DNA from: an uncultured Candidatus Saccharibacteria bacterium
GTDB taxonomy: Bacteria > Patescibacteriota > Minisyncoccia > Phycocordibacterales > UBA918
Length of the DNA stretch: 35,850 bases
Assembly (NCBI GenBank): GCA_964425475.1
Contig: CAYRMF010000001.1
Location: forward strand, 1 to 35,850
Direction of reading: 5' to 3'
Part shown: piece after piece, positions 11,707 through 34,414 of the stretch
How the letters are laid out: every line of letters starts with the position of its first letter
Position numbering within the stretch: position 1 is the stretch's first letter
Translations under genes and position numbers: made by a program
Notes under the pieces: model-generated
What the model saw: the letters and a program-made list of their open reading frames with translations, nothing else
The model's database searches: none
Told to the model about the DNA's origin: nothing

Positions 11707-11817
11707 GACGACCTCCTTTTCAAGAACTACAAGGTTGAGAAATTATCTTTAAAACTAAGGGGTAACTAAAAATTGTCACATTTCTTGAGTTTTGGTAGAC
11801 ATTTTCAGACTGTTACT

Positions 11818-11826
11818 GTTATAGCA
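11818..11826 (-). promoter_or_regulatory. Extended -10 promoter TGcTATAAC for the HD-domain gene
   Basis: The motif lies about 110 nt upstream of the ATG, which implies a leader of about 100 nt. Confidence 0.4.
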
Positions 11827-11872
11827 CAATTTTATGGAAAAGAAATACATCAGAGCGCTCACATTAAACACA

Positions 11873-11899
11873 AAAATCCCTGCGGTGCGCAGGGATTTT
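11873..11899 (-). terminator. Intrinsic terminator after the 723-aa gene
   Basis: ATCCCTGCG-cac-CGCAGGGAT is flanked by A4 and T4 and followed by TTTTGTGTTT on the minus strand. Confidence 0.8.
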
Positions 11900-11919
11900 G
11901 TAGGAGATGTGTGGGTACA

Positions 11920-19050: not shown

Positions 19051-19530
19051 TTATCCTTTGATAAATAGTTCAAATGATTCGGGTGTTTCACCTTCCGCTG
19101 CTGGAATAAGATTGAGCTCAACGGCACGACCCTCGAGCGTTGCTTTAATAACTGCATTTTCACTTGCATCAAAGCTCACCATGAATCGTTGTGGTGTGGT
19201 TGTTTGTTCACACGTATCAGCATGATTGACGACATCAAAATCAATGTAGACTGTTTCTGGCATGGACTCTTGTATGCGTGTTGACCAATTGAGCAAATCG
19301 CATGGGGTCGGCATGAGTATTTCACCCGCTACTGTGTGAGTCGGTGGAATAAAGAAATGCTTCGCATCGATGCGTGTAATACTCGCATATGGACCGTCGA
19401 CAGCGAGTGGTTCCGGTTCCGTCGTGGGTGCTTCTGCTATTTCTGCTTTCTTGAGGTACGCAAATCCAAACATCCCGACAACAATGAGTGCAAGGATGCC
19501 AAATGCGACGAACATGTGTTTGTGTTCCAT
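19051..19530 (-). CDS. Hypothetical membrane-anchored protein (159 aa, two extracytoplasmic Cys)
   Basis: N-terminal TM FVAFGILALIVVGMFGFAYL. No family recognised. The stop is 3 nt from the start of the thioredoxin-like gene. Confidence 0.6.
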   Translation of the reverse strand: MEHKHMFVAFGILALIVVGMFGFAYLKKAEIAEAPTTEPEPLAVDGPYASITRIDAKHFFIPPTHTVAGEILMPTPCDLLNWSTRIQESMPETVYIDFDVVNHADTCEQTTTPQRFMVSFDASENAVIKATLEGRAVELNLIPAAEGETPESFELFIKG

Positions 19531-19578: not shown

Positions 19579-20889
19579 CTATTCTACAAGAGTATCGAGA
19601 TCCGTATCATTGAGTACCGTTGAGGCATTATCCTTCCCTTCAATAGTGACCTCGTATGCTCTATTCTCAGTTGCATTCTGAATATACAACGATATAGCAA
19701 CAAACATCAGGATAAGTGAAGCGAGCGAGATGAAGAACCATTTATACTGTGTTACAAAATACCAAGCAGTTGCAAGTGTACTCTGGGACCTTTCTCCTGA
19801 AGTGAGCTGACTACGGAGATCAAGAACCCCTTTCTGAAGTGGTGCGGTTGCACGCGCATACGTGCGTTGCATTCTGAGTGGCTTGGCGTCATTTGTCTGC
19901 TCTTCTTCACGAGTAGCTCCACGTACCTCTACTCCAGCAAGTTCGAGCATGCGACGCACATATGCACGCACCATAAAGACAATAAGCCCAACAAAAACTG
20001 CGATGCTGAGTATTGTAATGAGCGTCCACTTCACCGGAATAACCCAAAAGTACGTTACGGCGTTTGTATCCGAGGAATTTTTCATATTACGCTCATCCCC
20101 GTAGGCGAGTGTCGCGACCGCTTTGTATCTACCAATGTCGGTGAAGCGGAAATCACTCTTCCATGAAAAAGAAAAGTCACGAATTGTCCCGGGGAGCACG
20201 TTGCCGAAGTGTGTTTGATAGTTTACCGGAATATTTCCACGCTCGGTGCCCCACATGTTTGTGATGACAATGTTCCCACGAGGAATGAGGTGCACATTCC
20301 CCTTATTTTCAAAACGAAGTGAAAACGATGCATCAGGCGTATCGAGGAATGAATCATTGACGCGAAACTCGCGAATTGTTCCCACTTCATGTACATCACC
20401 CTCAACGCGCAAAAACAAGAGTGACGTAACTGCTTGTGAAGTACGTACCGCGATTTCATTCGTTTCTTTTGGTGGTTCTGTAGAGATGAGGACCGCAGCA
20501 TAGTGTCCACCCGGTGAAGCATTTTGTGGTATTTCAGCAAAAAATTGAATGTCCTGTGTTTGCTCGGGTGGAATGGTAAAGGGGCCCTGTGGCATCTGTA
20601 TCCACTCACCAAATGTTGTGTTCTCTCCACCACTTTCAGCAAGCGTAAGAAATTTCCCCCTACCCTCCTCTCCAACAGCTTGAAAGTTGACCACCTCGGC
20701 GTACACAGTGAGTGGGTACGGGTTTCCATTGACCACCTTAATGCTACTCTGCCAAATATCACCAGGCATGACTGAAAGCTGAAAAAGTGGTGGTGTGACA
20801 CTGAGTACCTGCTTCTCGTCCGCATGCGCATATCCAGTGATGAAAAGCGCGTACGTAAAGACTGCAACAAAGAATATACTGTATTTCAT
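19579..20889 (-). CDS. DUF916/DUF3324-like cell-surface protein, paralogue 2 (436 aa; signal peptide, two beta domains, two TM segments)
   Basis: Signal peptide MKYSIFFVAVFTYALFITGYAHA. LSVTPPLFQLSVMPGDIWQSSIKVVNGNPYPLTVYAEV. W-I-x..PPEQTQDIQFFAEIPQNASPGGHYAAVLIS. Second domain ..FENKGNVHLIPRGNIVITN..GRYKAVATLAYG. ATGA overlap with the upstream gene. Confidence 0.6.
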   Translation of the reverse strand: MKYSIFFVAVFTYALFITGYAHADEKQVLSVTPPLFQLSVMPGDIWQSSIKVVNGNPYPLTVYAEVVNFQAVGEEGRGKFLTLAESGGENTTFGEWIQMPQGPFTIPPEQTQDIQFFAEIPQNASPGGHYAAVLISTEPPKETNEIAVRTSQAVTSLLFLRVEGDVHEVGTIREFRVNDSFLDTPDASFSLRFENKGNVHLIPRGNIVITNMWGTERGNIPVNYQTHFGNVLPGTIRDFSFSWKSDFRFTDIGRYKAVATLAYGDERNMKNSSDTNAVTYFWVIPVKWTLITILSIAVFVGLIVFMVRAYVRRMLELAGVEVRGATREEEQTNDAKPLRMQRTYARATAPLQKGVLDLRSQLTSGERSQSTLATAWYFVTQYKWFFISLASLILMFVAISLYIQNATENRAYEVTIEGKDNASTVLNDTDLDTLVE

Positions 20890-21920
20890 GATGGTTTGGT
20901 GAGATGAAGATCGTGACCTTTTGATGTACTGTGTCCATCACGTACGTGCACCGTGAGATGTTCGTGGTCATCATCCTGCATATCATCATCGAAGTAGCGA
21001 CGGTGGACATACCATGCACAGAGAGAAACAAAAATCACAAAACACGAAAGCATTATGATGAGCATGCGGAGCGGAAATATGTAAAAGAAACTGGTGTCTT
21101 GGAGCGAGGCACGTTGTGTCGAACCATACTCAACGGTGAGAAATGCTTTATATTTGCCAAATTTTCCTTCCGCAGGTATAGAGGCCGTGAAAGTGTGCTC
21201 TGCTTTGGGTTGAATACTTACGTTTTCAGTATTGACAGGAAGTGCTCCGACTTCCTTCCCCGTACTATCATAGAGAATAATCTCACCTGTTGGTGTCATA
21301 ACCTCATCACCCGGATTAGTAAACGTAAATGCTGCCGCTTGGTTGTCGCTACTCGTCACAAATCTCTCAACGATGAATTTTGAGAGCTTGAGAAATTCTC
21401 TGTTCTCTTCAGCAATCGTGATGGTAATGACCGTTCCGGGTGCTTGTCCATTTGCAACCTGCCGTTCTGCTTCATCGCGATTGCCACCATAACCAAAACC
21501 GATGAATGCGTGATAGGTGTTGGGTACTGGGGAGGGGTTCATGCGTATGGTAAGCGGAATCGTTTTCGACGTACCCGGTTGCAAATCAATTCCGAGACGA
21601 CTTATTTCAATCCATGAAGTCACCGACTTCGTACGGTCGCTCTCGACCGCTTGCTTGAATGCTTCGATGGTCCCTCCCTCTTTGAGGGATATTTCATTGA
21701 CACTTGGATACACCGTTACGGGGGTTTCGCCCGTGTTTGTGATTGTTATGTCTTTTGTAATGATGTCACGAGCGACTGCCTTGGTATCGATAACCATAGG
21801 CGAAACGGTATATGATATTGCAAAAACAAACCCCTTTGGATAAAAAAGGGAAACGCAGAGAAATGCAAACACTAAAAATTTAAAAGATTGGAACTGAAAC
21901 ATAGCGAATACGTGCTTCAT
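20886..21920 (-). CDS. DUF916/DUF3324-like cell-surface protein, paralogue 1 (about 344 aa; signal peptide, two beta domains, TM, acidic/His tail)
   Basis: The start is set at ATG 21920 (MKHVFAMFQFQSFKFLVFAFLCVSLFYPKGFVFA). Alternatives are 21932 and 21902, and all of them overlap the 3' end of the giant gene. YTVSPMVIDTKAVARDIITKDITITNTGETPVTVYPSV. SWIEISRLGIDLQPGTSKTIPLTI. Second domain FTFTNPGDEVMTPTGEIILYD..GKYKAFLTVEYG. Confidence 0.6.
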   Translation of the reverse strand: MKHVFAMFQFQSFKFLVFAFLCVSLFYPKGFVFAISYTVSPMVIDTKAVARDIITKDITITNTGETPVTVYPSVNEISLKEGGTIEAFKQAVESDRTKSVTSWIEISRLGIDLQPGTSKTIPLTIRMNPSPVPNTYHAFIGFGYGGNRDEAERQVANGQAPGTVITITIAEENREFLKLSKFIVERFVTSSDNQAAAFTFTNPGDEVMTPTGEIILYDSTGKEVGALPVNTENVSIQPKAEHTFTASIPAEGKFGKYKAFLTVEYGSTQRASLQDTSFFYIFPLRMLIIMLSCFVIFVSLCAWYVHRRYFDDDMQDDDHEHLTVHVRDGHSTSKGHDLHLTKPS

Positions 21921-24900
21921 ATAAGCCGGCATCTTGTAATGAACGAATAAACAACCGGTACACGATATCGGTCGTATCACTGACCGTAGGTTGTGAACTA
22001 TATGATACCTCATCTAGGGTCGATGTGCTCACACGCGCGTACGTGTCGATGGCAGAAAAACGTGTTGAGTCACCATTCAGCGTATCATCTCCAGTATGGT
22101 ATCCAAAACAGCTTTGTGCACCCACATCGCACCCGGAAGCCCAAGAAATGGGGGATGCATTCGTTCCTGTTACTGGTTTCATGTACGCACCATTGGTGCT
22201 CATCAAATCTCCATCCATGACCATAAATAGCTGATACCCCTGTGTGCCGTTTGTATCAATCGTAAGACGGTGTCCACCCTCACGCATCTGGTCGGCCACG
22301 AGCGTACCGAATGGAAGTGACGTTGGCGTGGTGTTGATATCGAGCGTTACACCCTCGATGACGGTCGATGAAGCGATGCCCGCCATGGTGAAGTTGAGGT
22401 GGGCACCCTCCGTCACCAATGATGGGTATGATTCGCTTGTATTTGTTGGTACGGGAATATTTTGCACAATATCAAACAATCTAAAGTAGTAGACGCGGTT
22501 GACGCGCGGGCCTGCTGACTGAATGGTAAACTCGTACTCAGCTGAGACGGTGTTATTGTGTCGATATCCCGTGAGTGCGCTCGGCGATTCGTTGTGTGTT
22601 CCACAGCCACTTCCCACACCAGCGACACACGATTCGGCATCAGAGAGTGTCACGGTAGAAATTTTTTCGTTATCGACTCCCCCACCATTTGCGTAGCACC
22701 ACGTTGAGGTGGCAAGGCACGTGCTCGTTGCGGTGACATCGAAAGCTTGTGTGAACGCTGGTGACTCTGAGTACTGCAGTTTGAATCGGACATCATCTCG
22801 TGACATGTTTTCGGTTTCTTTCACGGTCACGCGGAGTTTGAGCGCTTGGGTGTTTGCAATATCAACCGGTGCAACATTCTCAACGGCGAGCGTCGTCGTG
22901 GGAGTTTCGTCAATCTCATTATCATACCAACGCCAATTTTGTGTCTTTGGTGTAAAACTTGAGGTGCGTAACTGCGGATACTGTGCGTAGGTATCGAGTG
23001 GTGTATTGTCTGCCTCAACCATTCTGAAGCAGTAGAATGTTTCTCCCATGGCACCGTTCTGCTCGACAATCCAATCGTACTCAATATCGTCATCAACCGA
23101 GACCGCACTCTCATTCGCCTCGGTGTCATTCTGCTCCTCGAGCGTACCTAAGATATCAGACACAGAGAGTTTGAGTTCAGAGAGCGTCGTGCCGTCTGTC
23201 GTCGCTGTTGCGTTATAGCCACGCCAAATGGAACTCGATGCACTATTTCCCACCATCCGCCAGTCAGTTTCGGGAATAGCACTACACGAACTCACCATCG
23301 GACCATATTGGAGACGGAACGCTCTGACTCCCGCGGGGAAGGTTGCATTTTTTGCTTGAATCGACATGCGCATACGAATTCGCTCATTGCCGCCGAGTGG
23401 TTCATCTGCACCGGTGAGCACCGAATTTTCGCCTAGGTCTACTCCCCCCACGGGCCACGGGTCAGTGGGGGTGAGCTCATTATTATCGACATAGAATCGA
23501 TAGTAATTCTGTGTGAGTGCAAGACCAGCCGTTGGCCACTCCACAATTTCAGTCCTGAAGGTGAAGGTCGAACCAATATTACTTCTCCATATCTCATACG
23601 CGGTCGATGAGGCAATTGTGATGCCGGCGAGCGCTCGGGGAAATGTGGTATCAGCAACGGATGACCGTGCATTCGTAAAGATAGATGCGTTCGTGAGGTC
23701 ACTGAGCGTTTTTCCAACAGGAATGCTCAGCGTGAGTGGTGCTGTACCACCACTGAGCCACCCGCTTGATTTTGTCACCACCATAGCACCGTCTGTGGTC
23801 TGTGTGTTTTCAATAATCCACGCAACGGAGGTTTGACCGGATGGTGTTGTCGCACCCGTTTCAAGGTAGTAGGAAACGTACCCAATACTGGAAAGCCACA
23901 CCTCAGCTCCAAATTCATCGGTACCGTTGAGACCGGTAGTATTTCTTTTCTGGGTGTGTATGAACGTACGCGTGAGACTGCTCAGTGCAGAAATCGCTTC
24001 AGTCTCAGTAACTCCCGCAGTCGTATAGGTGTGCTGACTTCGTTGAATATTCCAGTTTGAGCCCGTAAACTCAACGACTGCATAGCTCACTTGGACTGCG
24101 TCCGAACCCGAAACACCTCTCCGAAAAATTGGTGCATTGAGAGATGCGTGCCACTCAGATGTTGAGAGGCCGGATTCATAATTTGTTGATGCTGTATCGG
24201 GATTCTGTTGTCCCGTGATGAATACCACCACTTTTGCATCATCGACAACATTCGAACGTACTGTACCTGTTGCACTCGTTGATCCGGTCCCATATCGGTG
24301 GAAGGTTTGTCCGCGGACAATCATTTCATTATCTCCTCCTGGGATGCCAATGTACTCTACAATCTCCCAACTCACTCGGGTCGTGCTCGAGATACCCGTA
24401 CGGGCAATGGTGACCGAGGTCATGATGTTGGAAGGATTTACGATATACGCAGTTGTGTTCGTAGCATTTTGAGCGAGGACGTTGCCTGTGTTATGCCCTG
24501 CTCCCGTATGTCCTATGTTCGTGATACGGATAAATGCACTCGTCGATGCAGAGGGGGTAATGTAGTCGACACCGGCAACAAGTGTCGTTGAGGTACTACT
24601 CGTCGCTATCGTCCTTGTGCCACGCTGTATCTCAAAATCTCTCTCCGGAGAAGTTGTGAGCTCGGGGTACTTGCTATACACATCGAGAGGAACGCCAGCT
24701 CCCGAGAGACGGAAACAGTATGTGGTGTTGTACCCGGCGCTCGTCGTCTGCTTGAGAGAAAATTCTGTTTCAATAAACTGCGTTGTGGTAAGTGCTGTAG
24801 ACGCAACCTGTGAAGAGGTGTCCTTTACTGCGCTGTTTGGGGTAAGGAATGTTGTGTTCTCATCGGTGACACCTCCGGCATTCACCGCGATATTGGTGGT

Positions 24901-27900
24901 GTCGCCTCCTTCCGTGAGATTGGTGGAGTTATACATGTCGAACGCACCGCCAACAGCCCCCACATCAGTCCACACATTTACCGCACTACAGGAAGAAATT
25001 TTGGTGCCGTACTCAAGTCGATATTCCGTTGCTTCTGCTGTAGTAGTGGTTGCCTCGTTGGACACCTGCATACGAAGTCTGAGTGGTGTTGCTTGAGAGA
25101 TGTTTGCAACCGCGGTGTCTTCCACTCCTCCTGTCGTTGAACTTGCGGTTGTCTCACTCCCGTTGTCGCTCCGCCAGTGATAGTGTGTCTGCGTATGTAC
25201 CGCGCCGATGAGTGCTGTCGACCCATTCATGTTACGCGCTATCTCCGGGCTCACACTTCCCCCACCTGAGATGAGTACATCCGCAGGGGGATTTGTAATT
25301 GCTATATCAATAGTTTCTCCATTCTGCGCACTCTGTGTTGTGTCGAGCACCGTATAGAGGCACATGGTTGCGGTCGTGGTGATGGTCACGGAGCCGGTGA
25401 ATGTCGATGTACCGTTCGCACTCGAAAACCCGTCGGTATCGGTGCTTCCAAACTGCGTGGCACCACCAACATACGATTCACTGCCACAATCGTACGGCGC
25501 TGAGGTGTCGAGATCGTAGTAGAGTTCGATGTTTTCAATATCACTCTGCCCATCAACGGTTCCCTGTTCAGAAATGGTAATACTTGTGACGTCGTGGCTC
25601 GTGCTGTTGTTGGTGATTACAAACGCACTTCCCACATAAAAATTCGTCGCAGGTAGGGTTGTGGTCGCCTGCTGTGAGGTCGTTGCGATATTCACCGCGA
25701 CATCCGCATTGATGTTTGCGCGCGGATAGTTCGTATAGGTGTGAAGTGGAGTACCCTCATCGGTAACACGAAAACAGTAGCTACTTCCATCTATCGCCGA
25801 TGAGGAAGCAACAATCGAGTATTCGAGTTCAACAAACTGTGAAGCGGTGAGTACGATATCATCTGTCTGTGATGAGGTATCGTTAATACCCCCATTTGGG
25901 GTGAGGAATGTGCTGTTCTCATCGGTGACTCCACCCACTCCAATAGCAATATTGGTCGTATTGCCCCCATCGAGCAAATTGGCAGAATCGTACATATCGA
26001 AGTGTCCACCGGCACTGCCGACATCTGTCCATCCACTCGCATCACCGCAGGCGCCAGAGTATTCCGCGTACTCTATGCGGTACTTCGTTGCGGGAGTGAC
26101 ACTACTTCCCTCGTTTGAGACCTCCATGCGAATGCGAGCGGGGGTCCCTTTGGGGAGGGCGAGGAGTGGTGTATCCTCAGCACCATTCGTTGTCGAGGTT
26201 GCTCCCGATTCGGTACCGCTGTCATCTCGCCAGTGATAGTGGGCAAGTGTCGGCATGTCATTGTATACGGATGTCGTGCCGGGAAGCGCCTGCACGGTGT
26301 TCGGGCTCGCAGTACTCCCAGCCACCACAACATCACTCGTTGGGTTCGTAACCTCGATATCAATTGTTGCATTACCTGGAGCACTATCTTGTACATCGAG
26401 TACCACGTAGAGACAGTATGCAGTGGTGGGACTAATCGTGAGCGTGGTACCACTAAACGAGGACACGCCATCTGCACCGGAAAATCCATCCGTATCGACC
26501 GAACCGAATTGCGCTTCACTCCCATCGTATGACTCACTCGCACAGTCGTACGGTGTAGCACTGTCTGCTTCGTAACGGAGTGTTGTATTTTTGAGGTGTG
26601 AAGAAGCATCAATAGTGCCCTTTTCAGTGAGCGTCACCCCCGTAACCGAAAACGTGTTCGTGTCTGAGGTATTGTAGAGCGTAATTGCTCCACCGATGTA
26701 CACGCCCGTAGTACCAGCGGACACTGAAGCGATTTGCGAACCGGTCGTCGGCTGTGCGGAGCTCGGCAAATCCACCATGGTTGCTCCATAGATATCGTCA
26801 TCGGTGTTATCAAACCAGCTCACATACATACGGTCAGCGCTCGACATCGGAAGATCAATGCCGTAGATATCGTCCGGATTTACCGTGTTCACCGGCCCCT
26901 GCTCATAGCCCCACGAATTCATCCCGTCTCGTGATCGCTTCCAAAGTACATTTGCCGTGAGAGCACTGTTTGCAATTCCTTGACCACTATATGCTACATA
27001 CACATCATCATTCGTAGAATCAAGTGCTACTGCGACGTTGGTGAGTCCCATGTTTGTGGTTGTAGCAGGATATGCCTTTGATATCCACGAGCCTCCGGTG
27101 TAGAGCGCTGTACGGATTTGGTCATCGGTACCCAACGTTGCATTGCGCGCAATGTAGGCGAGGTAGAGGTTCCCCGTAGAAGAACTGACAGCGACATCCA
27201 TACCCATGTCGTATGTTGCATTTTCAGGGGCTACAGCATCAATGGTAGTCCATGCAGCAGACCAGATAGTGTTATTCCATATTTTGTACCGAAGTACATC
27301 AGCTGAAATATCGCGGTTGATAACCATAATACTTCCGCCAGAGAGTGGCATGAGCATATTTTGGTCACTTGCTGCAGCATCGAGCGGATTTGCTCCTGTC
27401 TCCGACCAGTTACCCGCCACATTACACGAAATAGTACACTCGACTATATACGAATCAGGCCCGGTGGTACCGTCGTTCGATACCGCGTAGAGTGTGCCGT
27501 CAGTCCCACGCGTCACGGAGACAAAGTTTTCTGCTTCCGTGAGAGACCCTCCCTGACCGGCAGTCATGTTTGTCGGTGTACCTCCCGAGAGGAGTGTATC
27601 ATCGCTCGTATTGAGACGGTTGTACCAGAGGTCATCGGCACTCGCATCGGCGGTCACGATGTGGATACTCGAACTTGCTGATGCAATACCCGGTGTCCAC
27701 TTGTCGTACCACACGGTCACCTGGTGACAGTCTGTCTGTGAGTCAACGGTGGTTGTCGCACTCCATGTGCTACCACCATCAGTCGTCTTCCTGTACACAC
27801 AGTATCCTCCCACATCTCGGAAGAATTTATATCCCACCTGATCGCTCGTGAAGACACTCTGTGAACCCGACTGAAGGTGCGAGGTACCTGCGGCCGAGGT

Positions 27901-29265
27901 TGTCGGGTCAATGGTTGATTGCGTGTATGCATCACTGCTGTTTATCTCATCGAATGCACTCGTCGTGACACGAACACCGTCTGAAATATCGAGTAACGTA
28001 TCTCCATAGATATCATCGTCGGTATTATCAAACCATGATACATAGAGTCGCGTGTCGCTCATAATATTCATATCTATGCCATAGATATCATCCGCTGATG
28101 TATTGATTGGCCCATACTCGTAGCTCCACGTACTCATACCGTCTGTTGATTTTCGCCAGTACACATTTCCTGATGCAAGAGTCGCGAGTGCCGTACGCGC
28201 ACTGTAGGCAACGTAGATGTCGTCACTCGAGGTATCGAGACCTATGGCGACGTTCGTGAGACCTTTCTCACTATAGCGCACCACCTGTTTCTTCACGGTC
28301 CACGAACCACCGGAGTATACAGCCGTGCGGATTTGGTCGTCCAAGCCGAGTGCGGTACTGCTCGCGATGTACGCGAGGTAAATGTCTCCGGTCGTCGGGT
28401 GCACGGTCATAGCCATACCAACGTCATAGGTAGTGTTGTCCGGCGCGTACGTGTCAAAAGTTGTGGTCGCAACATCCCATGCACCCGTGCCGTTATTCCA
28501 CACTTTACTCCCGATGTCTTCAAGCCCAATGTCACGATGAATAGCGATGATGTTTCCGTTTGGGAGTGGTGCAAGTATGGCGTAATTGTTGGTTAGTCCA
28601 AAAGGGTTTGTTCCTGCCTCTGACCAGTTTCCCGCAGTGTTGCAGTTTGTTGAACACCGCACCACATATGAATCAGAGGCATCAATACTCGCTACATATA
28701 TTGTTCCATTGGTGGCCTTCGTTATGGACACTTGGTTGGCACCCGTTGTGAGTGTCCCACCCTGCGCCGTTGCAACACTCACCGGCGTGTATCCGAGAAG
28801 AAGCGTGTCGTCATTGGTATCGAGGCGGTTGTACCACGCATCATCGGGGTTGGCGTCAATTGTTGCGATGTGTATCTTCGTGCCAGTGTCCCCTGGTGTC
28901 CACCTGTCATACCAGACCGATATTGCGAGACAGTCTACCTGCGCATCGACGGTTGTTGTAGAGCTCCACGTTGTTCCCCCATCGGAAGTTTTGCGGTACA
29001 CGCAGTAACCGGGTGCATCAACAAAAAATTTGTATCCGACTTGGTCGCTCACAAAGACTGTTTGTGCACCCGACTGAAGGTGGTACGTGGGGGTAATGAG
29101 CGCATTAGAATCAATCGCAGACTGTGCAGCTTCTGCAGTGGGAATCTCATCGTATCCGAAGCGAATAAGTCCATCACCAAAACTTCCGACAAGAATCGTA
29201 ATGATAAGGTACAGTGAAAAATACACCCTCCCCTTCCTGAGTTTTCCGAATAACCCTCCTTTCAT
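21880..29265 (-). CDS. Giant secreted or anchored surface protein (2461 aa): 2 Asp-box propeller-like modules, repeated Ig-like and jelly-roll-like modules, WxL-like C-terminal domain
   Basis: An uninterrupted 7.4-kb ORF. N-terminal signal anchor VYFSLYLIITILVGSF. Asp-box motifs TSDGGTTW, STDGMSTW, TTDGGSTW and SRDGMNSW. The internal duplications are listed as separate features. Its own promoter lies at 29351..29359. Confidence 0.85.
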   Translation of the reverse strand: MKGGLFGKLRKGRVYFSLYLIITILVGSFGDGLIRFGYDEIPTAEAAQSAIDSNALITPTYHLQSGAQTVFVSDQVGYKFFVDAPGYCVYRKTSDGGTTWSSTTTVDAQVDCLAISVWYDRWTPGDTGTKIHIATIDANPDDAWYNRLDTNDDTLLLGYTPVSVATAQGGTLTTGANQVSITKATNGTIYVASIDASDSYVVRCSTNCNTAGNWSEAGTNPFGLTNNYAILAPLPNGNIIAIHRDIGLEDIGSKVWNNGTGAWDVATTTFDTYAPDNTTYDVGMAMTVHPTTGDIYLAYIASSTALGLDDQIRTAVYSGGSWTVKKQVVRYSEKGLTNVAIGLDTSSDDIYVAYSARTALATLASGNVYWRKSTDGMSTWSYEYGPINTSADDIYGIDMNIMSDTRLYVSWFDNTDDDIYGDTLLDISDGVRVTTSAFDEINSSDAYTQSTIDPTTSAAGTSHLQSGSQSVFTSDQVGYKFFRDVGGYCVYRKTTDGGSTWSATTTVDSQTDCHQVTVWYDKWTPGIASASSSIHIVTADASADDLWYNRLNTSDDTLLSGGTPTNMTAGQGGSLTEAENFVSVTRGTDGTLYAVSNDGTTGPDSYIVECTISCNVAGNWSETGANPLDAAASDQNMLMPLSGGSIMVINRDISADVLRYKIWNNTIWSAAWTTIDAVAPENATYDMGMDVAVSSSTGNLYLAYIARNATLGTDDQIRTALYTGGSWISKAYPATTTNMGLTNVAVALDSTNDDVYVAYSGQGIANSALTANVLWKRSRDGMNSWGYEQGPVNTVNPDDIYGIDLPMSSADRMYVSWFDNTDDDIYGATMVDLPSSAQPTTGSQIASVSAGTTGVYIGGAITLYNTSDTNTFSVTGVTLTEKGTIDASSHLKNTTLRYEADSATPYDCASESYDGSEAQFGSVDTDGFSGADGVSSFSGTTLTISPTTAYCLYVVLDVQDSAPGNATIDIEVTNPTSDVVVAGSTASPNTVQALPGTTSVYNDMPTLAHYHWRDDSGTESGATSTTNGAEDTPLLALPKGTPARIRMEVSNEGSSVTPATKYRIEYAEYSGACGDASGWTDVGSAGGHFDMYDSANLLDGGNTTNIAIGVGGVTDENSTFLTPNGGINDTSSQTDDIVLTASQFVELEYSIVASSSAIDGSSYCFRVTDEGTPLHTYTNYPRANINADVAVNIATTSQQATTTLPATNFYVGSAFVITNNSTSHDVTSITISEQGTVDGQSDIENIELYYDLDTSAPYDCGSESYVGGATQFGSTDTDGFSSANGTSTFTGSVTITTTATMCLYTVLDTTQSAQNGETIDIAITNPPADVLISGGGSVSPEIARNMNGSTALIGAVHTQTHYHWRSDNGSETTASSTTGGVEDTAVANISQATPLRLRMQVSNEATTTTAEATEYRLEYGTKISSCSAVNVWTDVGAVGGAFDMYNSTNLTEGGDTTNIAVNAGGVTDENTTFLTPNSAVKDTSSQVASTALTTTQFIETEFSLKQTTSAGYNTTYCFRLSGAGVPLDVYSKYPELTTSPERDFEIQRGTRTIATSSTSTTLVAGVDYITPSASTSAFIRITNIGHTGAGHNTGNVLAQNATNTTAYIVNPSNIMTSVTIARTGISSTTRVSWEIVEYIGIPGGDNEMIVRGQTFHRYGTGSTSATGTVRSNVVDDAKVVVFITGQQNPDTASTNYESGLSTSEWHASLNAPIFRRGVSGSDAVQVSYAVVEFTGSNWNIQRSQHTYTTAGVTETEAISALSSLTRTFIHTQKRNTTGLNGTDEFGAEVWLSSIGYVSYYLETGATTPSGQTSVAWIIENTQTTDGAMVVTKSSGWLSGGTAPLTLSIPVGKTLSDLTNASIFTNARSSVADTTFPRALAGITIASSTAYEIWRSNIGSTFTFRTEIVEWPTAGLALTQNYYRFYVDNNELTPTDPWPVGGVDLGENSVLTGADEPLGGNERIRMRMSIQAKNATFPAGVRAFRLQYGPMVSSCSAIPETDWRMVGNSASSSIWRGYNATATTDGTTLSELKLSVSDILGTLEEQNDTEANESAVSVDDDIEYDWIVEQNGAMGETFYCFRMVEADNTPLDTYAQYPQLRTSSFTPKTQNWRWYDNEIDETPTTTLAVENVAPVDIANTQALKLRVTVKETENMSRDDVRFKLQYSESPAFTQAFDVTATSTCLATSTWCYANGGGVDNEKISTVTLSDAESCVAGVGSGCGTHNESPSALTGYRHNNTVSAEYEFTIQSAGPRVNRVYYFRLFDIVQNIPVPTNTSESYPSLVTEGAHLNFTMAGIASSTVIEGVTLDINTTPTSLPFGTLVADQMREGGHRLTIDTNGTQGYQLFMVMDGDLMSTNGAYMKPVTGTNASPISWASGCDVGAQSCFGYHTGDDTLNGDSTRFSAIDTYARVSTSTLDEVSYSSQPTVSDTTDIVYRLFIRSLQDAGLYEARIRYVSVPIF
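22411..23508 (-). repeat. Two further copies of the part-2 (jelly-roll-like) submodule (aa ~1920-2102 and ~2110-2285)
   Basis: YYRFYVDNNE..RIRMRMSIQ..FRLQYG..SSCS..DWRMVG..FYCFRMVEADNTPLDTYAQYPQLRT and NWRWYDNEID..LKLRVTVKE..FKLQYSES..YYFRLFDIVQNIPVP..SYPSLVT share the same motif order as the HYHWR modules. Confidence 0.65.
24652..26733 (-). repeat. Tandem duplication of a ~340-aa two-part module (aa ~845-1185 and ~1196-1538)
   Basis: Part 1 carries ..PYDC.SESY.G...QFGS.DTDGFS.. and ..ATIDI.[VI]TNP..DV. Part 2 runs from HYHWR.D to ..YR[IL]EY...C...W[TD]VG..GG.FDMY.S.NL..GG.TTNIA...GGVTDEN[ST]TFLTPN.. and ends ..YCFR[VL]...G.PL..Y..YP. Confidence 0.8.
26767..29112 (-). repeat. Tandem duplication of a ~380-aa Asp-box (BNR) propeller-like module inside the giant ORF (aa ~52-428 and ~452-833)
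   Basis: The two copies align end to end by eye, from HLQSG[AS]Q[TS]VF.SDQVGYKFF to YVSWFDNTDDDIYG. In the best stretch (HLQSG...WTPG) I count 48 of 64 identical residues. Confidence 0.8.
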
Positions 29266-29350
29266 TTCCTCTTCATTATGGACTACTTAGACATCCAAAA
29301 CAATCGCATCCCTGTGTGAAAACGCTTTATAAAATCTATAAAAATTTTAA

Positions 29351-29359
29351 AATATAACA
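29351..29359 (-). promoter_or_regulatory. Extended -10 promoter TGtTATATT for the giant gene
   Basis: The minus strand reads ga-TGtTATATT-ttaaaa inside an AT-rich block, about 85 nt upstream of ATG 29265 and directly downstream of the twin hairpins. Confidence 0.45.
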
Positions 29360-29382
29360 TCTCCACATCAATCAACTAAACT

Positions 29383-29447
29383 AAATGAGCGACATCGTAA
29401 GTCGCTCATTTTTGAGTGTTATGAGCGACTTACGATGTCGCTCATTT
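29383..29447. repeat. Perfect 27-nt inverted repeat (29383..29409 / 29421..29447) whose arms are each a 9-bp-stem hairpin
   Basis: The left arm is AAATGAGCGACATCGTAAGTCGCTCAT. The right arm ATGAGCGACTTACGATGTCGCTCATTT is its exact reverse complement. The spacer is 11 nt. The stem ATGAGCGAC/GTCGCTCAT is identical in both arms, and the 7-nt loop is inverted. Confidence 0.9.
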
Positions 29448-29474: not shown

Positions 29475-31211
29475 TTACATGCGCGATTCTTCCTCAAGCA
29501 CATCTTCAAGTGGCACATATGGCTCAACTACCAAGTCCTCGATGTGTGCGGTGTCGGTAGATGTCGCGGTATTCTCAAATGATGGCACGAGCACATCAAC
29601 AGTTCCCGCGGGTGTACTTGTCGCTTCAGTCACGACAGGTTCCTCGCTTGGCGTCTCGAAGGATGGAATAACGATGTCGCCATCGTCGATACCATTGTCA
29701 GTTGTCGTTCCCACATCGTCATTTTCATCTGAATCGACTTTCTGTTTTGGTTGCGTTGTTGGTGACACGAGTGCGCGCTCTTCACCTGTTTGATCAGGGT
29801 CGGGAATCTCTTCGGGAACCGGGGTTGGCTTCGATGCGAGATCGACGATCTCACCGCTCTTGAGGTCGTATCCGCGCGTTTCGATATCGCCGGTCTCCAT
29901 TTTTGCATCATACACGAGCACAAAGCGCGGATTCTCAATTGAGCCACCTCCTGAATCGGAAACAGTATCGATGAGTCCAGTGCGAAGGTCATACACCTTC
30001 ACACGCCACACATCTCCTTCGAAGGATTGCCACACGACATGCGTTCCGTTCACGCTCGGTGCAATATCGTGAGTGGTATTATCGGTGAGCATGGTCACTT
30101 TCTCGTCTTCCAACATAAATATCTCCCAGTCACTTCCCACCCACCCCTGCCACACGACCGTGTCGCCAAAGACGCTCGGTTGCATGTTGTTGAAACTATC
30201 GTACGTCAGCTGTTTCTCACTCTCCTCATCAAAGTCGTACTGGATAATTTGGAAACGTCCGTCTATGAGACGGTGCCACACTGCAGTGTTGGAAACCTCA
30301 TCGAAGTACGGAGCGTCGTCATCAGCTTGATTATTTGTGAGTGGTGTCAACTCGCTATTCTTTTCAAGATATATTTCCTTGTCACCTTCTGCGTCGAGTG
30401 CTGAAAAGATTCTATCGGCGTTGAGCACCTGTGGTGCCTCGGTGGGGGTAGCGCAATAGAATGTGCCGTCGCCCACGGTGGTACACTCGTTTTTAGAGAA
30501 TGAAAATCTATTTTCATCGTTCGTGACAACGCTCACCACATTCTGAGAGGTGGTGAGGGGTGTGGCTGTCGCCTCTTCGGTGACACCATCAGGAAGAGTC
30601 ACTTCTGCTTCCACCTCATTCACCACTTCAGGGTCGACCGGGTCATCAGTCACAATCGCACTCCCCTCTGTCGTTGTTGCATCCGTCAAAGGAGCAGTAG
30701 GTGTATCACCACTTTCATCAATCGGTGTGTCGGCAGTGCCAGATGCCAAATCTTCTGCGATTACAGTATCAGCTATGGTATCGAAGGATGTTTCTAACGG
30801 TGTCGCCTCGGGCTCATCCACAGCTTGGAGTGGAATGTCTGAGGGTGCAGAATTGTTGACAGGCGCAGGTTCGATTGCAGGCGGTTGTGCATCTGGAGTG
30901 GTAATGTCTATGGTCGAATCGCTCTCAGGATTTTCAGGAAGAGCCGTATTGGGTTCAGTGCCATTCGTGGATTCAGGTGTGCTTTCTGTGGAAATTTCAT
31001 CGGCAAAAACGGGAGCAAGTGGCATACACACAAGCACAAAAAGCAAACACAACGAAAGAGCGCCGTAGACACGATACATCAAACCCCGCATGGACGTTCG
31101 CGAGTTTCCATTTATAGAATGCTGTTTCTTCATACCGTTTGCACAGATACGACAATATTCGGCTTTTGAGCCGTGTCGTACGTGAAGGCACGCATTGTCC
31201 ACATGACACAT
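29475..31211 (-). CDS. Membrane protein (578 aa): Cys/His-rich N-terminus, TM, acidic Thr/Pro/Glu linker, beta-propeller-like repeats, acidic tail
   Basis: The start is set at ATG 31211 because AAGAGGTG lies 6 nt upstream. The ORF track begins at TTG 31262, and ATG 31091 is also possible. N-terminus MCHVDNACLHVRHGSKAEYCRICANG. TM GALSLCLLFVLVCMPLAPVF. Repeats of the type P.V.G..VVWQ....W.I..YD. Confidence 0.65.
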   Translation of the reverse strand: MCHVDNACLHVRHGSKAEYCRICANGMKKQHSINGNSRTSMRGLMYRVYGALSLCLLFVLVCMPLAPVFADEISTESTPESTNGTEPNTALPENPESDSTIDITTPDAQPPAIEPAPVNNSAPSDIPLQAVDEPEATPLETSFDTIADTVIAEDLASGTADTPIDESGDTPTAPLTDATTTEGSAIVTDDPVDPEVVNEVEAEVTLPDGVTEEATATPLTTSQNVVSVVTNDENRFSFSKNECTTVGDGTFYCATPTEAPQVLNADRIFSALDAEGDKEIYLEKNSELTPLTNNQADDDAPYFDEVSNTAVWHRLIDGRFQIIQYDFDEESEKQLTYDSFNNMQPSVFGDTVVWQGWVGSDWEIFMLEDEKVTMLTDNTTHDIAPSVNGTHVVWQSFEGDVWRVKVYDLRTGLIDTVSDSGGGSIENPRFVLVYDAKMETGDIETRGYDLKSGEIVDLASKPTPVPEEIPDPDQTGEERALVSPTTQPKQKVDSDENDDVGTTTDNGIDDGDIVIPSFETPSEEPVVTEATSTPAGTVDVLVPSFENTATSTDTAHIEDLVVEPYVPLEDVLEEESRM

Positions 31212-31274
31212 TACGCACCTCTTAGCTAATGATAGCAAGGAGTGACAAGTATCCCTACACAATTATCAACAGTG

Positions 31275-32021
31275 CTACTTGCGGAAAGAGTCAGCGAGTA
31301 GAATTGAAAAGTCTTTAAACGTCATACGACCATCCCCATCAAAATCAAACAGTGCATTTCTCGTAAACCACGCTGACATAAATACACTGATGTCGGAAAG
31401 ATCGACATCCCCATCTCCATCAGTATCCGTCACAATAGAGACCGTCGCTTCGCCCGAGATAACCCCATCATCACCCAAAACAGCTATCACTGTCTGATTA
31501 TCAGCGAGCGATGGCGTAACACTCACTTCAGTACCTTTTCCATCTCCAGCAACAAGTGATGAGCCACTGACAAAAATACGTGCAGTACCGGCTTCTATTG
31601 CCCTCACTTTAATACGCGCGATGGTATGCTCGCCTATGAAACCTTTTCGAAATGTTCCACCACGAAGGTATATCTTCCCCGCTTTTGCAGAGGGTTCTTC
31701 AGTCCATAGAGTAATCACTGAGGTGCCGGTATCAATACCGAGCACTTGTATGGTGTCTTCAGGGTACCCAATCACCAAGTCAACGGCATTGATTGACACA
31801 TGCGCAGTGACATCGACATGTATATAAAACTCTTGATCTTGAGTCACCGTCTGTGCACTTGTACTTATGGTTACATAGGATGCATTTTCCCCAATAATCG
31901 ATGCAAGACCAGCTAAAAGTGCAGCAACAATAACAGCAGGAAACGCGTACTTGACTGTCGTGTACTGTGTTTCACTGTGTGAAGGAAAAAGTGCTTTCCA
32001 AAGTATTTTAAACATACTCAC
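31275..32021 (-). CDS. Membrane-anchored cohesin-like protein with C-terminal dockerin-like EF-hand pair (248 aa)
   Basis: TM FPAVIVAALLAGLASII. Cohesin-like module ..EFYIHVDVTAHVSINAVDLVIGYPEDTIQVLGIDTGTSVITLWTEEPS..GKIYLRGG..IARIKVRAIEAGTARIF. C-terminus DTDGDGDVDLSDISVFMSAWF..FDFDGDGRMTFKDFSILL. The start is GTG 32021, which overlaps the upstream stop as GTGA, or ATG 32015. Confidence 0.65.
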   Translation of the reverse strand: MSMFKILWKALFPSHSETQYTTVKYAFPAVIVAALLAGLASIIGENASYVTISTSAQTVTQDQEFYIHVDVTAHVSINAVDLVIGYPEDTIQVLGIDTGTSVITLWTEEPSAKAGKIYLRGGTFRKGFIGEHTIARIKVRAIEAGTARIFVSGSSLVAGDGKGTEVSVTPSLADNQTVIAVLGDDGVISGEATVSIVTDTDGDGDVDLSDISVFMSAWFTRNALFDFDGDGRMTFKDFSILLADSFRK

Positions 32022-32677
32022 TGAACTAATTGCGAGCGCAACTCATCAATACGCTGATTGTGCACCACAAGCAATTCATTGATTTCTTGTGCCTGTTGCA
32101 CCAGTTGCGTGACATGCTCACTTTGAGATGATTCACCGGTAATGAGTGAAGCAATAATTTCGTCCTGAATACGTGCTTGATCACCAAGTCCGGTACTCCG
32201 TCCCTTTTCAAGTTCAATAAGTGTATTCCACTCGGTGCGCTGGAATGAGTCAAAGTCTTCTCCACTGAGGAGAGCAAGTGTGTCAAGAAGTGTATTGTAG
32301 TGGACAATTTCACGCTCAAGTTTTGCAACCATGAGTGCTTTACGTTCTGCATAAAACATACCGCAACTCTCGGAAAGTGTCTGCACTGCGATGAGCTCTC
32401 GCATTGAAAGAGCTCCGAGATTGCCGAGGAGATTCTCATACTCATCACGACGTGGACAATCACGAACAATGCTCTGAATAATACTATCGGCACCATTACT
32501 GTCAGTTATCTCGGCCAATTGTGCCAAGTAGGATCTTTCTTCTTCAAGTTGCGTACGAAGAAGTGTTTCAAGTGCTCGCTGATTGTGGTGGACGTACCAC
32601 GTACCAATCACAAAAACAAGCGCGACGGAGAAGAGGACAAATGCGATGTAGAGGTGTTTTTCAAGTGAGTTTTTCAT
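32018..32677 (-). CDS. Membrane-anchored coiled-coil protein (219 aa), unknown function
   Basis: N-terminal TM LYIAFVLFSVALVFVIGTWYV, then a helical, heptad-like sequence rich in E/L/Q/R. It is tightly packed between cohesin-like genes. Confidence 0.6.
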   Translation of the reverse strand: MKNSLEKHLYIAFVLFSVALVFVIGTWYVHHNQRALETLLRTQLEEERSYLAQLAEITDSNGADSIIQSIVRDCPRRDEYENLLGNLGALSMRELIAVQTLSESCGMFYAERKALMVAKLEREIVHYNTLLDTLALLSGEDFDSFQRTEWNTLIELEKGRSTGLGDQARIQDEIIASLITGESSQSEHVTQLVQQAQEINELLVVHNQRIDELRSQLVQ

Positions 32678-32683
32678 ACAGTA

Positions 32684-34414
32684 TTATGAAACAACGCGTT
32701 CAATGTCTTCAATCTCCTTCCGAATCTTTCCCTGTGCCGACTTCAGATCATTTTCTATACGCTCAATGAGCACAAGTTCTGCTTTTGTGAGCTTACCCTT
32801 GCGTGATTCCTTGAGCTCACCAACATTCACATCAAGATTTTTAATAATCTCCGCAAATTCACGTGAGAGTCGGTCTTCGGCTTCAAATGTTTCTTTGCGA
32901 ACAGTGCGCTTCCAGCGCGCGAGACGGTGCCAGAGGTACCACGTGCCAAAGATGAGTACAATGAGGAGTGACACAATAGGGACAACTACCGAGAGAAAAT
33001 TGATGACGACCGTGCCCGCAGCAACGTACCCAGGAACTTCGGCAATTATTTTAATTGTGTCTGACTTTTCACTGACACTTCCGAATGCATCTCGTGCAAC
33101 GGCAGAAATAGTATACACACCCGTGTCGAAGGGAGTATCAGGAATGAAGGTGAACTCACCCTCTGCGTTACTCTGTACCACATAAGGATTACCTGTCCCC
33201 TCCTCCGCGACACTGAGGATAGTATTATCACTCGCGCGCACCACTTCAATTGTTACTGTTGCATTCGGACGTGTTTTCCCTTTAATGGCAGGAATAACTT
33301 CTGTGTTGATGCGTGTCGGATACTCAGTGAAGATAGGTTTCTCGAATGCATCAATGGTGAGCGAATAGCTCGCAACTGCTGTGTTACCCGCACTATCAAA
33401 CGCCTCAACTGAGATAGTGTGATAGCCCGGCAAGAGTGATTCGAGTGTGTACTGTTGTTTTTGTTCGGTATCAGTGAAGACGATCGGTTCCTTACCATCA
33501 ATTTGAATTTTATACTCGATAATTGGTGATGTGTCATCGAATGCAAATATGAGTACCTTTGCAGGATTCGTTGCGTCAAGGGGTTTTTCGGTGATAGTGA
33601 AGTTTTTTGGACCCTCCGTATCAACGGCGAGTTTGTACTCAGCAATCCGTCCCCATCCATCAGCATTTTTGAATTGCAAGTGGAAGTATGAAATTCCTTC
33701 GGGCAAATCCTCAAGTGTCTTCTTCGTAAGTGCTTCTTCATACACTTTTGTCGGTACGGTGCCACTTGTCCGATCGAGGAGCATTCGTACGGCAGTTACG
33801 CCTGCAGGCACTGTCCAACTCAGTGTTGCGTTTTTCTGCTTGTACCATGCAGTTTGATCAGGGTGTGTACTCGATGTTATTTTTGGTGCTTGCGGAGTGT
33901 TTGCAGGCGGTATGTACTCAGGTGCTGGAGTCTCCCCTTTCGCAGCAATCGTGAAGGAGCCACTGCCCATAGAGGTGAGCACATTGGTGCCCATACCGTC
34001 AGCAGCGAGCACGGAACCGCTTGAAAAAGTGACTTTTGGTGTCCCCGCTCCAAGCGGTCTGAAGGTTATGGAAACAATCGTTCCAGCTCCACCCTTATAC
34101 CCCGTGGGTGAACCACCACCGAATGAAACCGTCCCTGCGCTGTTTGAAAAAGTTGGCTCTTCTGTCCAAAGATTAAAAATGGAGCTTGCGCGTGTGACAC
34201 TGACCACCTGAAGTTCGCGCGTATTGAACGTAAGTTTGCCATCCGCCGCATTCACTGATTTCCCTTCGGTATTGAGCACAACCGATACACTGAACGGTGT
34301 TCCTGCTGTATACACTCCGGTGCTTGGACTTACCTTGAGCGTCGCAGCATCAGCACTATGCGCAACGAAAAAAAGAAACAGTCCGATTACCCACAATGTT
34401 TTGTTACTATTCAT
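32684..34414 (-). CDS. Cohesin-like surface protein with Ig-like repeats, C-terminal TM and cytoplasmic coiled-coil tail (576 aa)
   Basis: The start is set at ATG 34414 (MNSNKTLWVIGLFLFFVAHSADA / ATLKVSP). The longer ORF-track version overlaps the upstream gene. Cohesin-like ATLKVSPSTGVYTAGTPFSVSVVLNTEGKSVNAADGKLTFNTRELQVVSV..IFNLWTEEPTFSNSAGTVSFGGG..VTFSSGSVLAADGMGTNVLT. Also THPDQTAWY..GISYFHLQFKNADGW. TM VVPIVSLLIVLIFGTWYLW. Confidence 0.7.
   Translation of the reverse strand: MNSNKTLWVIGLFLFFVAHSADAATLKVSPSTGVYTAGTPFSVSVVLNTEGKSVNAADGKLTFNTRELQVVSVTRASSIFNLWTEEPTFSNSAGTVSFGGGSPTGYKGGAGTIVSITFRPLGAGTPKVTFSSGSVLAADGMGTNVLTSMGSGSFTIAAKGETPAPEYIPPANTPQAPKITSSTHPDQTAWYKQKNATLSWTVPAGVTAVRMLLDRTSGTVPTKVYEEALTKKTLEDLPEGISYFHLQFKNADGWGRIAEYKLAVDTEGPKNFTITEKPLDATNPAKVLIFAFDDTSPIIEYKIQIDGKEPIVFTDTEQKQQYTLESLLPGYHTISVEAFDSAGNTAVASYSLTIDAFEKPIFTEYPTRINTEVIPAIKGKTRPNATVTIEVVRASDNTILSVAEEGTGNPYVVQSNAEGEFTFIPDTPFDTGVYTISAVARDAFGSVSEKSDTIKIIAEVPGYVAAGTVVINFLSVVVPIVSLLIVLIFGTWYLWHRLARWKRTVRKETFEAEDRLSREFAEIIKNLDVNVGELKESRKGKLTKAELVLIERIENDLKSAQGKIRKEIEDIERVVS

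Follow-up and report, generated by a model that had tools for sequence, protein, structure and literature searches.

The 35,850-nucleotide stretch analysed here (contig CAYRMF010000001.1 of assembly GCA_964425475.1, from an uncultured Candidatus Saccharibacteria bacterium), hereafter the window, encodes a giant protein of 2461 amino acids (aa) plus stop codon in an open reading frame (ORF) at 21880..29265 of the minus strand, which starts with ATG and runs uninterrupted. We found that this protein belongs to a conserved, previously uncharacterised family of giant proteins in Paceibacteria/Kaiserbacteria-type Patescibacteria, and we consider it somewhat probable that it is a wall- or membrane-anchored, head-and-stalk, adhesin-like fibre, the large subunit of a conserved envelope complex. 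Giant immunoglobulin (Ig)-like surface proteins are common, so a giant ORF of this kind comes as no surprise. The novelty lies in a strictly syntenic, phylum-specific envelope cluster, its link to DUF916 and two unannotated domain families, H and Ct; a literature search yielded no description of the giant-protein family and no link of DUF916 or WxL with Patescibacteria. Few bacteria of groundwater and wastewater are as abundant, or as poorly understood, as the Paceibacteria (Parcubacteria), and to our knowledge next to nothing has been established about the way in which they contact hosts or surfaces. The cluster, with its swappable-head giant protein, is a concrete candidate for an attachment or surface apparatus, an outcome that is useful rather than startling, with a function that we infer.

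The original prediction had noted the long frame without a stop codon and had read it as assembled by internal duplication: a signal anchor, two propeller-like modules, two Ig-like plus HYHWR modules, a unique region, two further YCFR-type modules and a distinct C-terminal domain. Upon comparison of the protein with itself by BLAST, these module borders were recovered almost residue for residue. The propeller-like modules A1 (aa 48-435; 27961..29124 on the minus strand, like every window feature below) and A2 (aa 449-841; 26743..27921) align with 54% identity (E 8e-137), and aa 853-1182 and 1207-1535 (B1 and B2) align with 47% identity (E 2e-96). The C-terminal halves of B (1017-1182 and 1358-1536) in turn match aa 1918-2099 with 26-28% identity (E 1e-9 to 2e-13) and aa 2110-2285 with 23% (E 2e-4), so that A1/A2, B1/B2 and all four copies of the HYHWR/YCFR module (H) emerge from one self-comparison with E-values far beyond chance. 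The named motifs were also located: YVSWFDNTDDDIYG at aa 408 and 814, Asp-box-like motifs at aa 93, 373, 494 and 778, HYHWR at aa 1009 and 1361 with YYRFY at aa 1921, YCFR or YYFR at aa 1163, 1516, 2078 and 2259, and YP.L.T-type ends at aa 1180, 1533, 2096 and 2280.

The same modules recur in homologues. At least 361 homologues were present in a large protein collection. The best 120 were all full length, fell into two size classes (2030-2080 aa, the majority, and 2441-2477 aa) and without exception kept the order leader, A (once or twice), B1, B2, U, C1, C2, Ct; those with names were each a "hypothetical protein" from Minisyncoccia, Kaiserbacteria or the "Patescibacteria group". With one genome scanned per species, relatives were found in 137 GTDB species genomes, and 76 loci of the 137 all came from Paceibacteria, Kaiserbacteria, Nomurabacteria or Parcubacteria metagenome-assembled genomes. 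Full-length orthologues lie on independent contigs at 95% identity (the closest locus, L004), 83%, 79% and lower. Mean pairwise identity was 48-58% in every module and thus even along the protein, and the module order of the best 120 homologues was repeated in about 70 species loci, which bears out the earlier view that the duplications are kept under selection and are not artefacts.

The view that the duplications are ancient held in part. B1/B2 and C1/C2 occur in every family member, so both of these duplications predate the family. The propellers have another history: two copies were present in 23 of the 119 proteins with a full propeller match, and in a neighbour-joining tree A1 and A2 of the P0071/75/80-82/85 clade grouped together, apart from A1 and A2 of the window clade. 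This separate grouping implies that the propeller duplication arose at least twice; as read from the tree, it is lineage-specific, restricted to two clades and independent in each. A1 is the extra, lineage-specific copy in the window protein.

Searching all ORFs of 79 loci with hidden Markov models (HMMs) of the modules revealed that the C-terminal part is fixed and the N-terminus exchangeable. The arrangement PROP-IG-H-IG-H-U-H-H-CT was found in 43 ORFs and its two-propeller form, PROP-PROP-IG-H-IG-H-U-H-H-CT, in 10. The series IG-H-IG-H-U-H-H-CT without propeller accounted for a further 10 ORFs, most of them behind unrelated heads of ~210-530 aa and one cut at a contig end, and it also stood behind a U-like head (4 ORFs) or behind heads of ~1,250 aa (3 ORFs). 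Pfam placed DUF7483 and DUF7361 in the ~1,250-aa heads and gave nothing else on the alternative N-terminal heads. Such a pattern is expected if the C-terminus attaches or assembles and the N-terminus gives specificity. Some loci have a second giant paralogue with a different head, either in tandem (L023, L024, L048) or on one contig ~190 kb apart (L030 and L058); L072, L073 and L077 are likewise listed with one. These second heads are U-like, unknown and of ~520 aa, or of the ~1,250-aa DUF7483/DUF7361 type (proteins of 3,040-3,358 aa), and the distant second copies are without D1, D2 and CT385 neighbours of their own.

The heads of the window protein resemble BNR/Asp-box six-bladed propellers (BNR_2, PF13088) in their Asp-box-like motifs, two per module, and in HMM matches across the family. 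The canonical boxes are TSDGGTTW at aa 93 and TTDGGSTW at aa 494, and the variants are STDGMSTW at aa 373 and SRDGMNSW at aa 778. BNR_2 matched 13 of 25 orthologous propeller modules (E<=0.01; best 8.9e-7), and the orthologue P0004 reached 31.3 bits against a cut-off of 31.4.

Below the head, the stalk begins with the Ig-like domain of B1 (aa 845-1003; 26257..26733; module HMM E 5e-58), whose paralogue in B2 was modelled as a beta-sandwich, followed by H copy 1 (HYHWR...YCFR; aa 1004-1186; 25708..26256), delimited by self-BLAST and HMM. The Ig-like domain of B2 (aa 1197-1355; 25201..25677; HMM and AlphaFold2 model mf989eece7d60, pLDDT, the predicted local distance difference test score, of 89.8) and H copy 2 (aa 1356-1540; 24646..25200) come next, then the U region (aa 1541-1915; 23521..24645), which the model renders as all-beta with about 26 strands. 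H copies 3 (C1; aa 1916-2102; 22960..23520; HMM and model m2e7e52e4c8c6, pLDDT 91.3) and 4 (C2; aa 2103-2287; 22405..22959) precede Ct (aa 2288-2461; 21883..22404), a beta-sandwich in AlphaFold2; copies 2 and 4 were each placed by self-BLAST, AlphaFold2 and HMM. Alignment of the two halves of U by hhalign gave no significant internal repeat, and the N-terminal half of U reappears as the head of some paralogues.

AlphaFold2 was run with family alignments on two spans, aa 1191-1915 and aa 1916-2461, and both models (pLDDT 89.8 and 91.3, respectively) were all-beta. When these multi-domain models were used as Foldseek queries against the PDB, only generic arrays were returned: integrin alpha legs, antigen I/II C123, PrgB Ig-like domains, the PitA pilus adhesin, alpha-2-macroglobulin (A2M)/complement macroglobulin (MG) domains and the WxLIP structure 9i1y, with E down to 4e-9, TM-scores of 0.1-0.25 and 6-11% identity. 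Matches in the viral library BFVD were likewise generic Ig/Fn3 arrays (TM <=0.16). The all-beta models and generic arrays together indicate that aa 845 to the C-terminus is a string of about nine beta-sandwich domains without a specific solved relative. At the sequence level, neither the whole protein nor profiles of B2+U and C1+C2+Ct retrieved anything from the PDB. Cross-comparison of Ig, H, U, Ct and propeller by hhalign gave nothing significant, the only significant pairs being Ct with CT385 and D1 with D2, described below. Integrin alpha and the Gram-positive adhesin stalks (antigen I/II C123, PrgB, PitA) share with the giant protein a propeller head on tandem beta-sandwich legs and were the best Foldseek matches of both models; FG-GAP propellers occur even in some other proteins with H modules. 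However, the propeller of the giant protein is BNR-like, not FG-GAP, its membrane or wall anchor is of another kind, and the TM-scores and identities just given leave common descent unsupported.

The original prediction could not assign the fourfold HYHWR/YCFR module to a named family, nor could we: Pfam and NCBIfam at E<=1 gave nothing on H (NCBIfam nothing on the giant protein at all), and no well-characterised family was found for it. An alignment of 42 modules defines H as a domain of ~180 residues with the motifs Q..YHWR.D.G.E, RLR..VSN, F.LQY, one Cys pair, W.DVG and YCFR...G..L..Y..YP. Searched against 1.84 billion representative proteins, the H profile matched 4,392 at E<=1e-3, 2,361 at E<=1e-10 and 554 at E<=1e-30, in proteins of 342-7,591 aa with 2-23 copies each. 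A Pfam scan of 35 other H-module proteins placed no family over H (0/35), and the domains that at times accompanied it there were FG-GAP, Laminin_G_3, DUF2341, F5/8-type C and N_methyl. One such protein is P0121, a Chloroflexota hypothetical protein of 2536 aa with 13 H copies. By profile matching, then, H is a widespread, unannotated stalk domain that occurs outside the family and outside Patescibacteria and is not peculiar to the giant ORF. With about 4,400 clusters for H, this family and Ct are fit for database curation. H arrays also occur in other giants, namely P0123 (6179 aa, 23 copies) and P0225 and P0238 (both >7,000 aa).

Evidence for an envelope complex comes from the neighbours of the giant gene. 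The gene order CT385-U5-U4-U3-U2-U1-GIANT-D1-D2-D3 was kept in most of the 79 loci (those with enough flank). Ct recurs as the C-terminal domain of CT385, a protein of 380-385 aa with an additional N-terminal domain, in 49 ORFs (HMM E 1e-21 to 1e-28; hhalign Prob 99.8%, E 1.6e-27). In L004 the CT385 gene lies at 2291-3433, a position from which the window equivalent falls just past the window end (35850). On the other side, the start of D1 (20886..21920) overlaps the 3' end of the giant ORF, and in nearly all loci that extend far enough, D1 is the next gene downstream of the giant one. D1 is a DUF916 (WxLIP-like) protein with a signal peptide, two Ig-like domains and a C-terminal transmembrane helix; its paralogue D2 (19579..20889) is DUF916-like with two transmembrane helices. 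The second Ig-like domain of D1 and D2 is presumed from length alone.

By profile comparison, D1 and D2 belong to the DUF916 (WxLIP) superfamily. They align with each other by hhalign (Prob 99.9%), and Pfam WxLIP_PGBD (PF06030) was found in 10 of 30 D1 orthologues and 22 of 29 D2 orthologues. LytR_C follows the second transmembrane helix in 22 of 29 D2 orthologues (about 545 aa; PDB match 2m5y), and D2 of the window clade is 436 aa long and lacks LytR_C. When the D2 ectodomain was searched against plasmids by tblastn, we obtained annotated DUF916 proteins in Streptomyces and Paenibacillus, with the strongest match (E 1e-9) in an unannotated stretch of Embleya. The D2 HMM gave Deinococcus at 4e-18, Embleya at 4e-13 and Streptomyces at 6e-10, and the D1 HMM gave the Paenibacillus DUF916 protein at 4.5e-7. 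DUF916-based clusters thus appear to reach well beyond Firmicutes, where they are mostly unannotated, extending the range of this type of surface complex to include Patescibacteria and, probably, loci of Deinococcus and Actinomycetota. Three of the matched loci have features of their own. On a plasmid of Deinococcus sp. NW-56 (L083:6941-12514) the D2-matching DUF916-like gene (E 4e-18) adjoins small and large unannotated proteins; in Embleya (L082:5273-8897) the D2-matching DUF916-like gene (E 4e-13) has as neighbour a 788-aa protein with a WxL-like C-terminus; and a Paenibacillus urinalis plasmid (L080:6815-11648) carries a classical locus of DUF916, small WxL and large WxL proteins, the last with an RCC1 beta-propeller head that parallels the propeller-headed giant protein.

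How the giant protein would reach the surface is suggested by its leader (aa 1-46; 29128..29265), a basic stretch followed by hydrophobic aa 16-34, the only hydrophobic segment of the protein by hydropathy, and then by AEA|AQ, conserved in the consensus of 16 orthologues. The N-terminal hydrophobic segment agrees with the signal anchor proposed originally; the leader may instead be cleaved, as AEA|AQ is a possible signal-peptidase site. The motif AEAA(Q/N)V sits 10-17 residues past the hydrophobic segment, and this unusual TM...AEAA leader is common to the giant protein and to CT385, where it lies at L004:2291-2420 and ends in ...F.AEAA, with other cluster proteins having ordinary signal peptides. 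It could serve as a dedicated processing or sorting signal, or as a donor strand. The 24 Cys residues of the giant protein fall mostly in conserved pairs inside domains, and its composition is rich in Ser and Thr (24% together) and poor in Lys (1.5%); paired Cys and this composition, together with the even conservation, fit an extracellular protein under purifying selection.

In the arrangement that we infer, a Sec-type leader, possibly cleaved at AEA|A, would export the giant protein, with Ct proximal and the head distal. The two BNR/Asp-box-like propellers, probably non-catalytic, would bind a ligand or glycan, borne on a stalk formed by the fixed Ig-H-Ig-H-U-H-H beta-sandwich series, in which the conserved Cys pairs could form disulfides. 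Ct, the proposed anchoring or assembly domain, would hold the fibre at the cell surface by docking on D1/D2 (DUF916), on peptidoglycan or on both, and CT385 would be a small Ct-bearing partner, so that CT385, the giant protein and the DUF916 anchors would by analogy follow the logic of Csc/WxL systems. The likely role would be attachment to a host cell or another surface.

Csc/WxL clusters combine two WxL proteins, one small and one large, with a WxLIP (PMC10599100, PMC9772566, PMC1534035). The WxLIP of Lactobacillales and Bacillales is a DUF916-DUF3324-transmembrane protein, and the large WxL protein carries N-terminal binding domains (PMC10599100, PMC9772566). In a published prediction, DUF916 supplies the strand with which the WxL beta-sandwich is completed (PMC10599100). 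Here, too, membrane-anchored proteins of the DUF916 superfamily are encoded beside a large protein; one C-terminal beta-sandwich (Ct, ~175 aa) is common to a small secreted protein and a very large one; and the large protein is a linear, mostly Ig-like string with its binding modules N-terminal. The last beta-strand motif is similar as well, and it is the only part of Ct that aligns with WxL (G.Y.A.LTY.A.P.F vs GTY...FTYT.TSGI or GTYSATLTVTAI). The systems differ in that there are two DUF916 paralogues here, one of which (D2) is usually fused to LytR_C; in that no LPXTG partner was seen and the Paceibacteria cluster adds cohesin/dockerin-like proteins; and in the host phylum, Patescibacteria, and the length of the large subunit, which is 2-4 times greater.

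Several results weigh against our reading. Ct has no PF13731 (WxL) match and no W-x-L motifs, and neither Ct nor CT385 aligned significantly by hhalign with two WxL profiles built from Paenibacillus and actinobacterial homologues (P 0.01-0.2), while the WxL-vs-WxL control gave Prob 91.6%; we therefore rejected Ct as a WxL domain. DUF3324 (HBD, PF11797) gave no match in 59 D1/D2 orthologues at E<=0.1, and the D1 and D2 profiles did not retrieve the WxLIP 9i1y from PDB sequences, D2 matching only the LytR_C structure 2m5y. As these membership tests failed, we describe the system as Csc/WxL-like in working, with a different anchor domain, and not as a member of the WxL family. At the head, the propeller assignment of A1 and A2 is a prediction from sequence, and BNR_2 scored 19.3 bits in the window protein, below its cut-off of 31.4. 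The low TM-scores place the likeness of the modelled stalk to adhesins at the level of fold class. If the leader stayed uncleaved, the propellers would lie beside the membrane and the orientation would be reversed. The adhesive role as a whole is predicted from sequence, models and analogy.

Giant surface proteins are also reported from episymbionts and predators, namely Vampirococcus lugosii and predatory bacteria. The likeness to them lies in very large, secreted and repeat-rich proteins of ultra-small, host-dependent prokaryotes, with a proposed part in host contact. They differ in that no shared domains were detected and in that the family described here keeps to a fixed architecture and a strict synteny, is accompanied by DUF916 partners and has no recognisable enzymatic domains. 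In Paceibacterales co-cultures, surface proteins of unassigned function with Ig-like and peptidoglycan-binding domains are among the most highly expressed genes, and a role in host adhesion was proposed for them (PMC10936435).

Of the alternatives to an adhesin-like fibre, the one that survives best, although we consider it unlikely, is a structural role as an S-layer or envelope-lattice protein, which together with cohesin/dockerin-like and DUF916 partners would form the regular surface layer of ultra-small cells of the candidate phyla radiation (CPR). The usual presence of one core giant copy per genome, in a syntenic housekeeping position beside redoxin, AI-2E, PGA_cap, FKBP, TGT and UvrB, would suit such a protein, as would the even conservation along 2,000+ residues and the Ser/Thr-rich, Lys-poor composition, and a preprint reports predicted S-layer proteins in Patescibacteria. 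However, neither Pfam nor NCBIfam at E<=1 gave a match to SLH, CWB2 or another known anchor, and the nearest folds are adhesin stalks and not S-layer proteins. Swappable heads and differently headed paralogues also suit ligand recognition better than lattice packing.

Somewhat less probable still is a polymeric fibre, likened to FimH/FimA or TasA-type fibres, in which CT385 would be the major subunit, polymerised by strand complementation through Ct, and the giant protein would join through its own Ct as tip adhesin on a D1/D2 platform. The Ct domain and the TM...AEAA leader that the small and the giant protein have in common are what this model would call for, and the DUF916-donated strand predicted to complete the WxL sandwich (PMC10599100) offers a precedent. 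Pfam revealed, however, no usher, sortase or dedicated peptidase among the cluster genes of the window and of two other loci, where several members have no family, and CT385 carries its extra N-terminal domain.

A surface glycoside hydrolase, sialidase-like, with catalytic BNR propellers and the remainder of the protein as a tether, is improbable. The BNR_2 similarity points in this direction, and the sole PDB match of the propeller profile was human sialidase-1 (8du5), at an E of 0.61. Yet the BNR_2 scores are sub-threshold, and many family members have unrelated heads in place of the propeller. Sialidases require a Tyr/Glu pair besides the Arg triad. In an alignment of 16 orthologues, R550, R812 and several Tyr and Asp of the propeller are invariant, yet not a single Glu is, and the full exo-sialidase (GH33-type) set of Arg triad, Tyr/Glu pair and acid/base Asp was not recovered. 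Without an invariant Glu, a sialidase-type active site is unlikely, and the likeness of A1 and A2 to BNR propellers is accordingly one without a conserved catalytic Glu.

An assembly artefact or a prophage structural gene, which the long repeat-containing ORF and a PHROG virion match in an unrelated window ORF (11920-14091) might bring to mind, is effectively refuted: DNA-level repeats within the ORF are at most 72% identical (71-72%), so that collapse or expansion in assembly is no concern, the same length and architecture recur in >100 independent assemblies, neither the giant ORF nor its neighbours match PHROG, the BFVD matches are generic, and the flanking genes are cellular housekeeping genes.

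We now turn to the remaining members of the cluster. U1 (29475..31262; true start probably an internal Met near 31133) is secreted and contains a propeller-like repeat region and an acidic linker of low complexity, and it had no Pfam or PHROG match. U2 (31275..32021) has an N-terminal transmembrane helix, a cohesin-like domain and a dockerin/EF-hand-like C-terminus; the dockerin scored 19.5 bits, below the 22.9 cut-off, with duplicated EF-hand-like D.DGDG motifs visible. U3 (32018..32677) has an N-terminal transmembrane helix, and the rest looks coiled-coil by eye. U4 (32684..34414) combines a signal peptide, a cohesin (Pfam Cohesin, 27.3 bits; cut-off 24.1), Big_13 (3e-11) and a C-terminal transmembrane helix, and U5 (34419..35435), homologous to U4/U2-type proteins across loci, has a signal peptide, a cohesin-like domain and a C-terminal transmembrane helix. 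D3 (19051..19530) is a small, N-terminally anchored and conserved member of the cluster that was present in 48 loci and has no family assignment. Further upstream in L004 (598-1734), a 378-aa cluster protein has Cys-rich DUF4215-like repeats, Ig-like domains and a dockerin-like C-terminal duplication; taken together with U2, U4 and U5, it suggests that cohesins and dockerins form a network in the cluster. The giant protein itself has no cohesin or dockerin module.

The boldest proposal that these genes allow, which we put forward as a conjecture with appreciably less confidence than the fibre itself, is that the ten-gene cluster is a Paceibacteria-wide host-attachment organelle and a deep, unrecognised DUF916 (Csc/WxL-type) branch. 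In it, Ct would replace WxL, a cohesin/dockerin-like scaffold would be added, a head-and-stalk protein of 2,000-3,400 aa with exchangeable heads would set host or ligand specificity, and H would be a new, widespread family of bacterial beta-sandwich stalk domains.

In the 209 nt that separate U1 from the giant gene, a consensus scan (29344..29411) showed a terminator-like hairpin with an 11-bp stem (29383-29411) and then a promoter-like site, TTGATG-16-TAAAAT (29344-29371). These consensus matches hint that GIANT-D1-D2(-D3) could be a transcription unit of its own.

The window consists of cellular DNA whose genes all lie on the same strand, and no tRNA or Rfam elements were found in it. Its upstream genes include UvrC, UvrA, a histidine kinase, UvrB and TGT, then FKBP, PGA_cap, AI-2E and redoxin, and uvrA, uvrB and uvrC are interspersed with envelope genes. 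The unrelated ORF at 11920-14091 encodes 723 aa, without a Pfam match and with a match to the PHROG virion structural protein phrog_2155 (E 9e-7). Together with an HD-domain gene it sits between TGT and UvrB (11068-14091). In L001 and L002 UvrB directly follows TGT (in L001 an unannotated gene takes the place of TGT), so the pair looks like a lineage-specific insertion. Lastly, the gene at 6165-8915, between the histidine kinase and UvrB, encodes another probable surface protein, which is 916 aa long and contains Big_13 and a bacterial TSP3 repeat.

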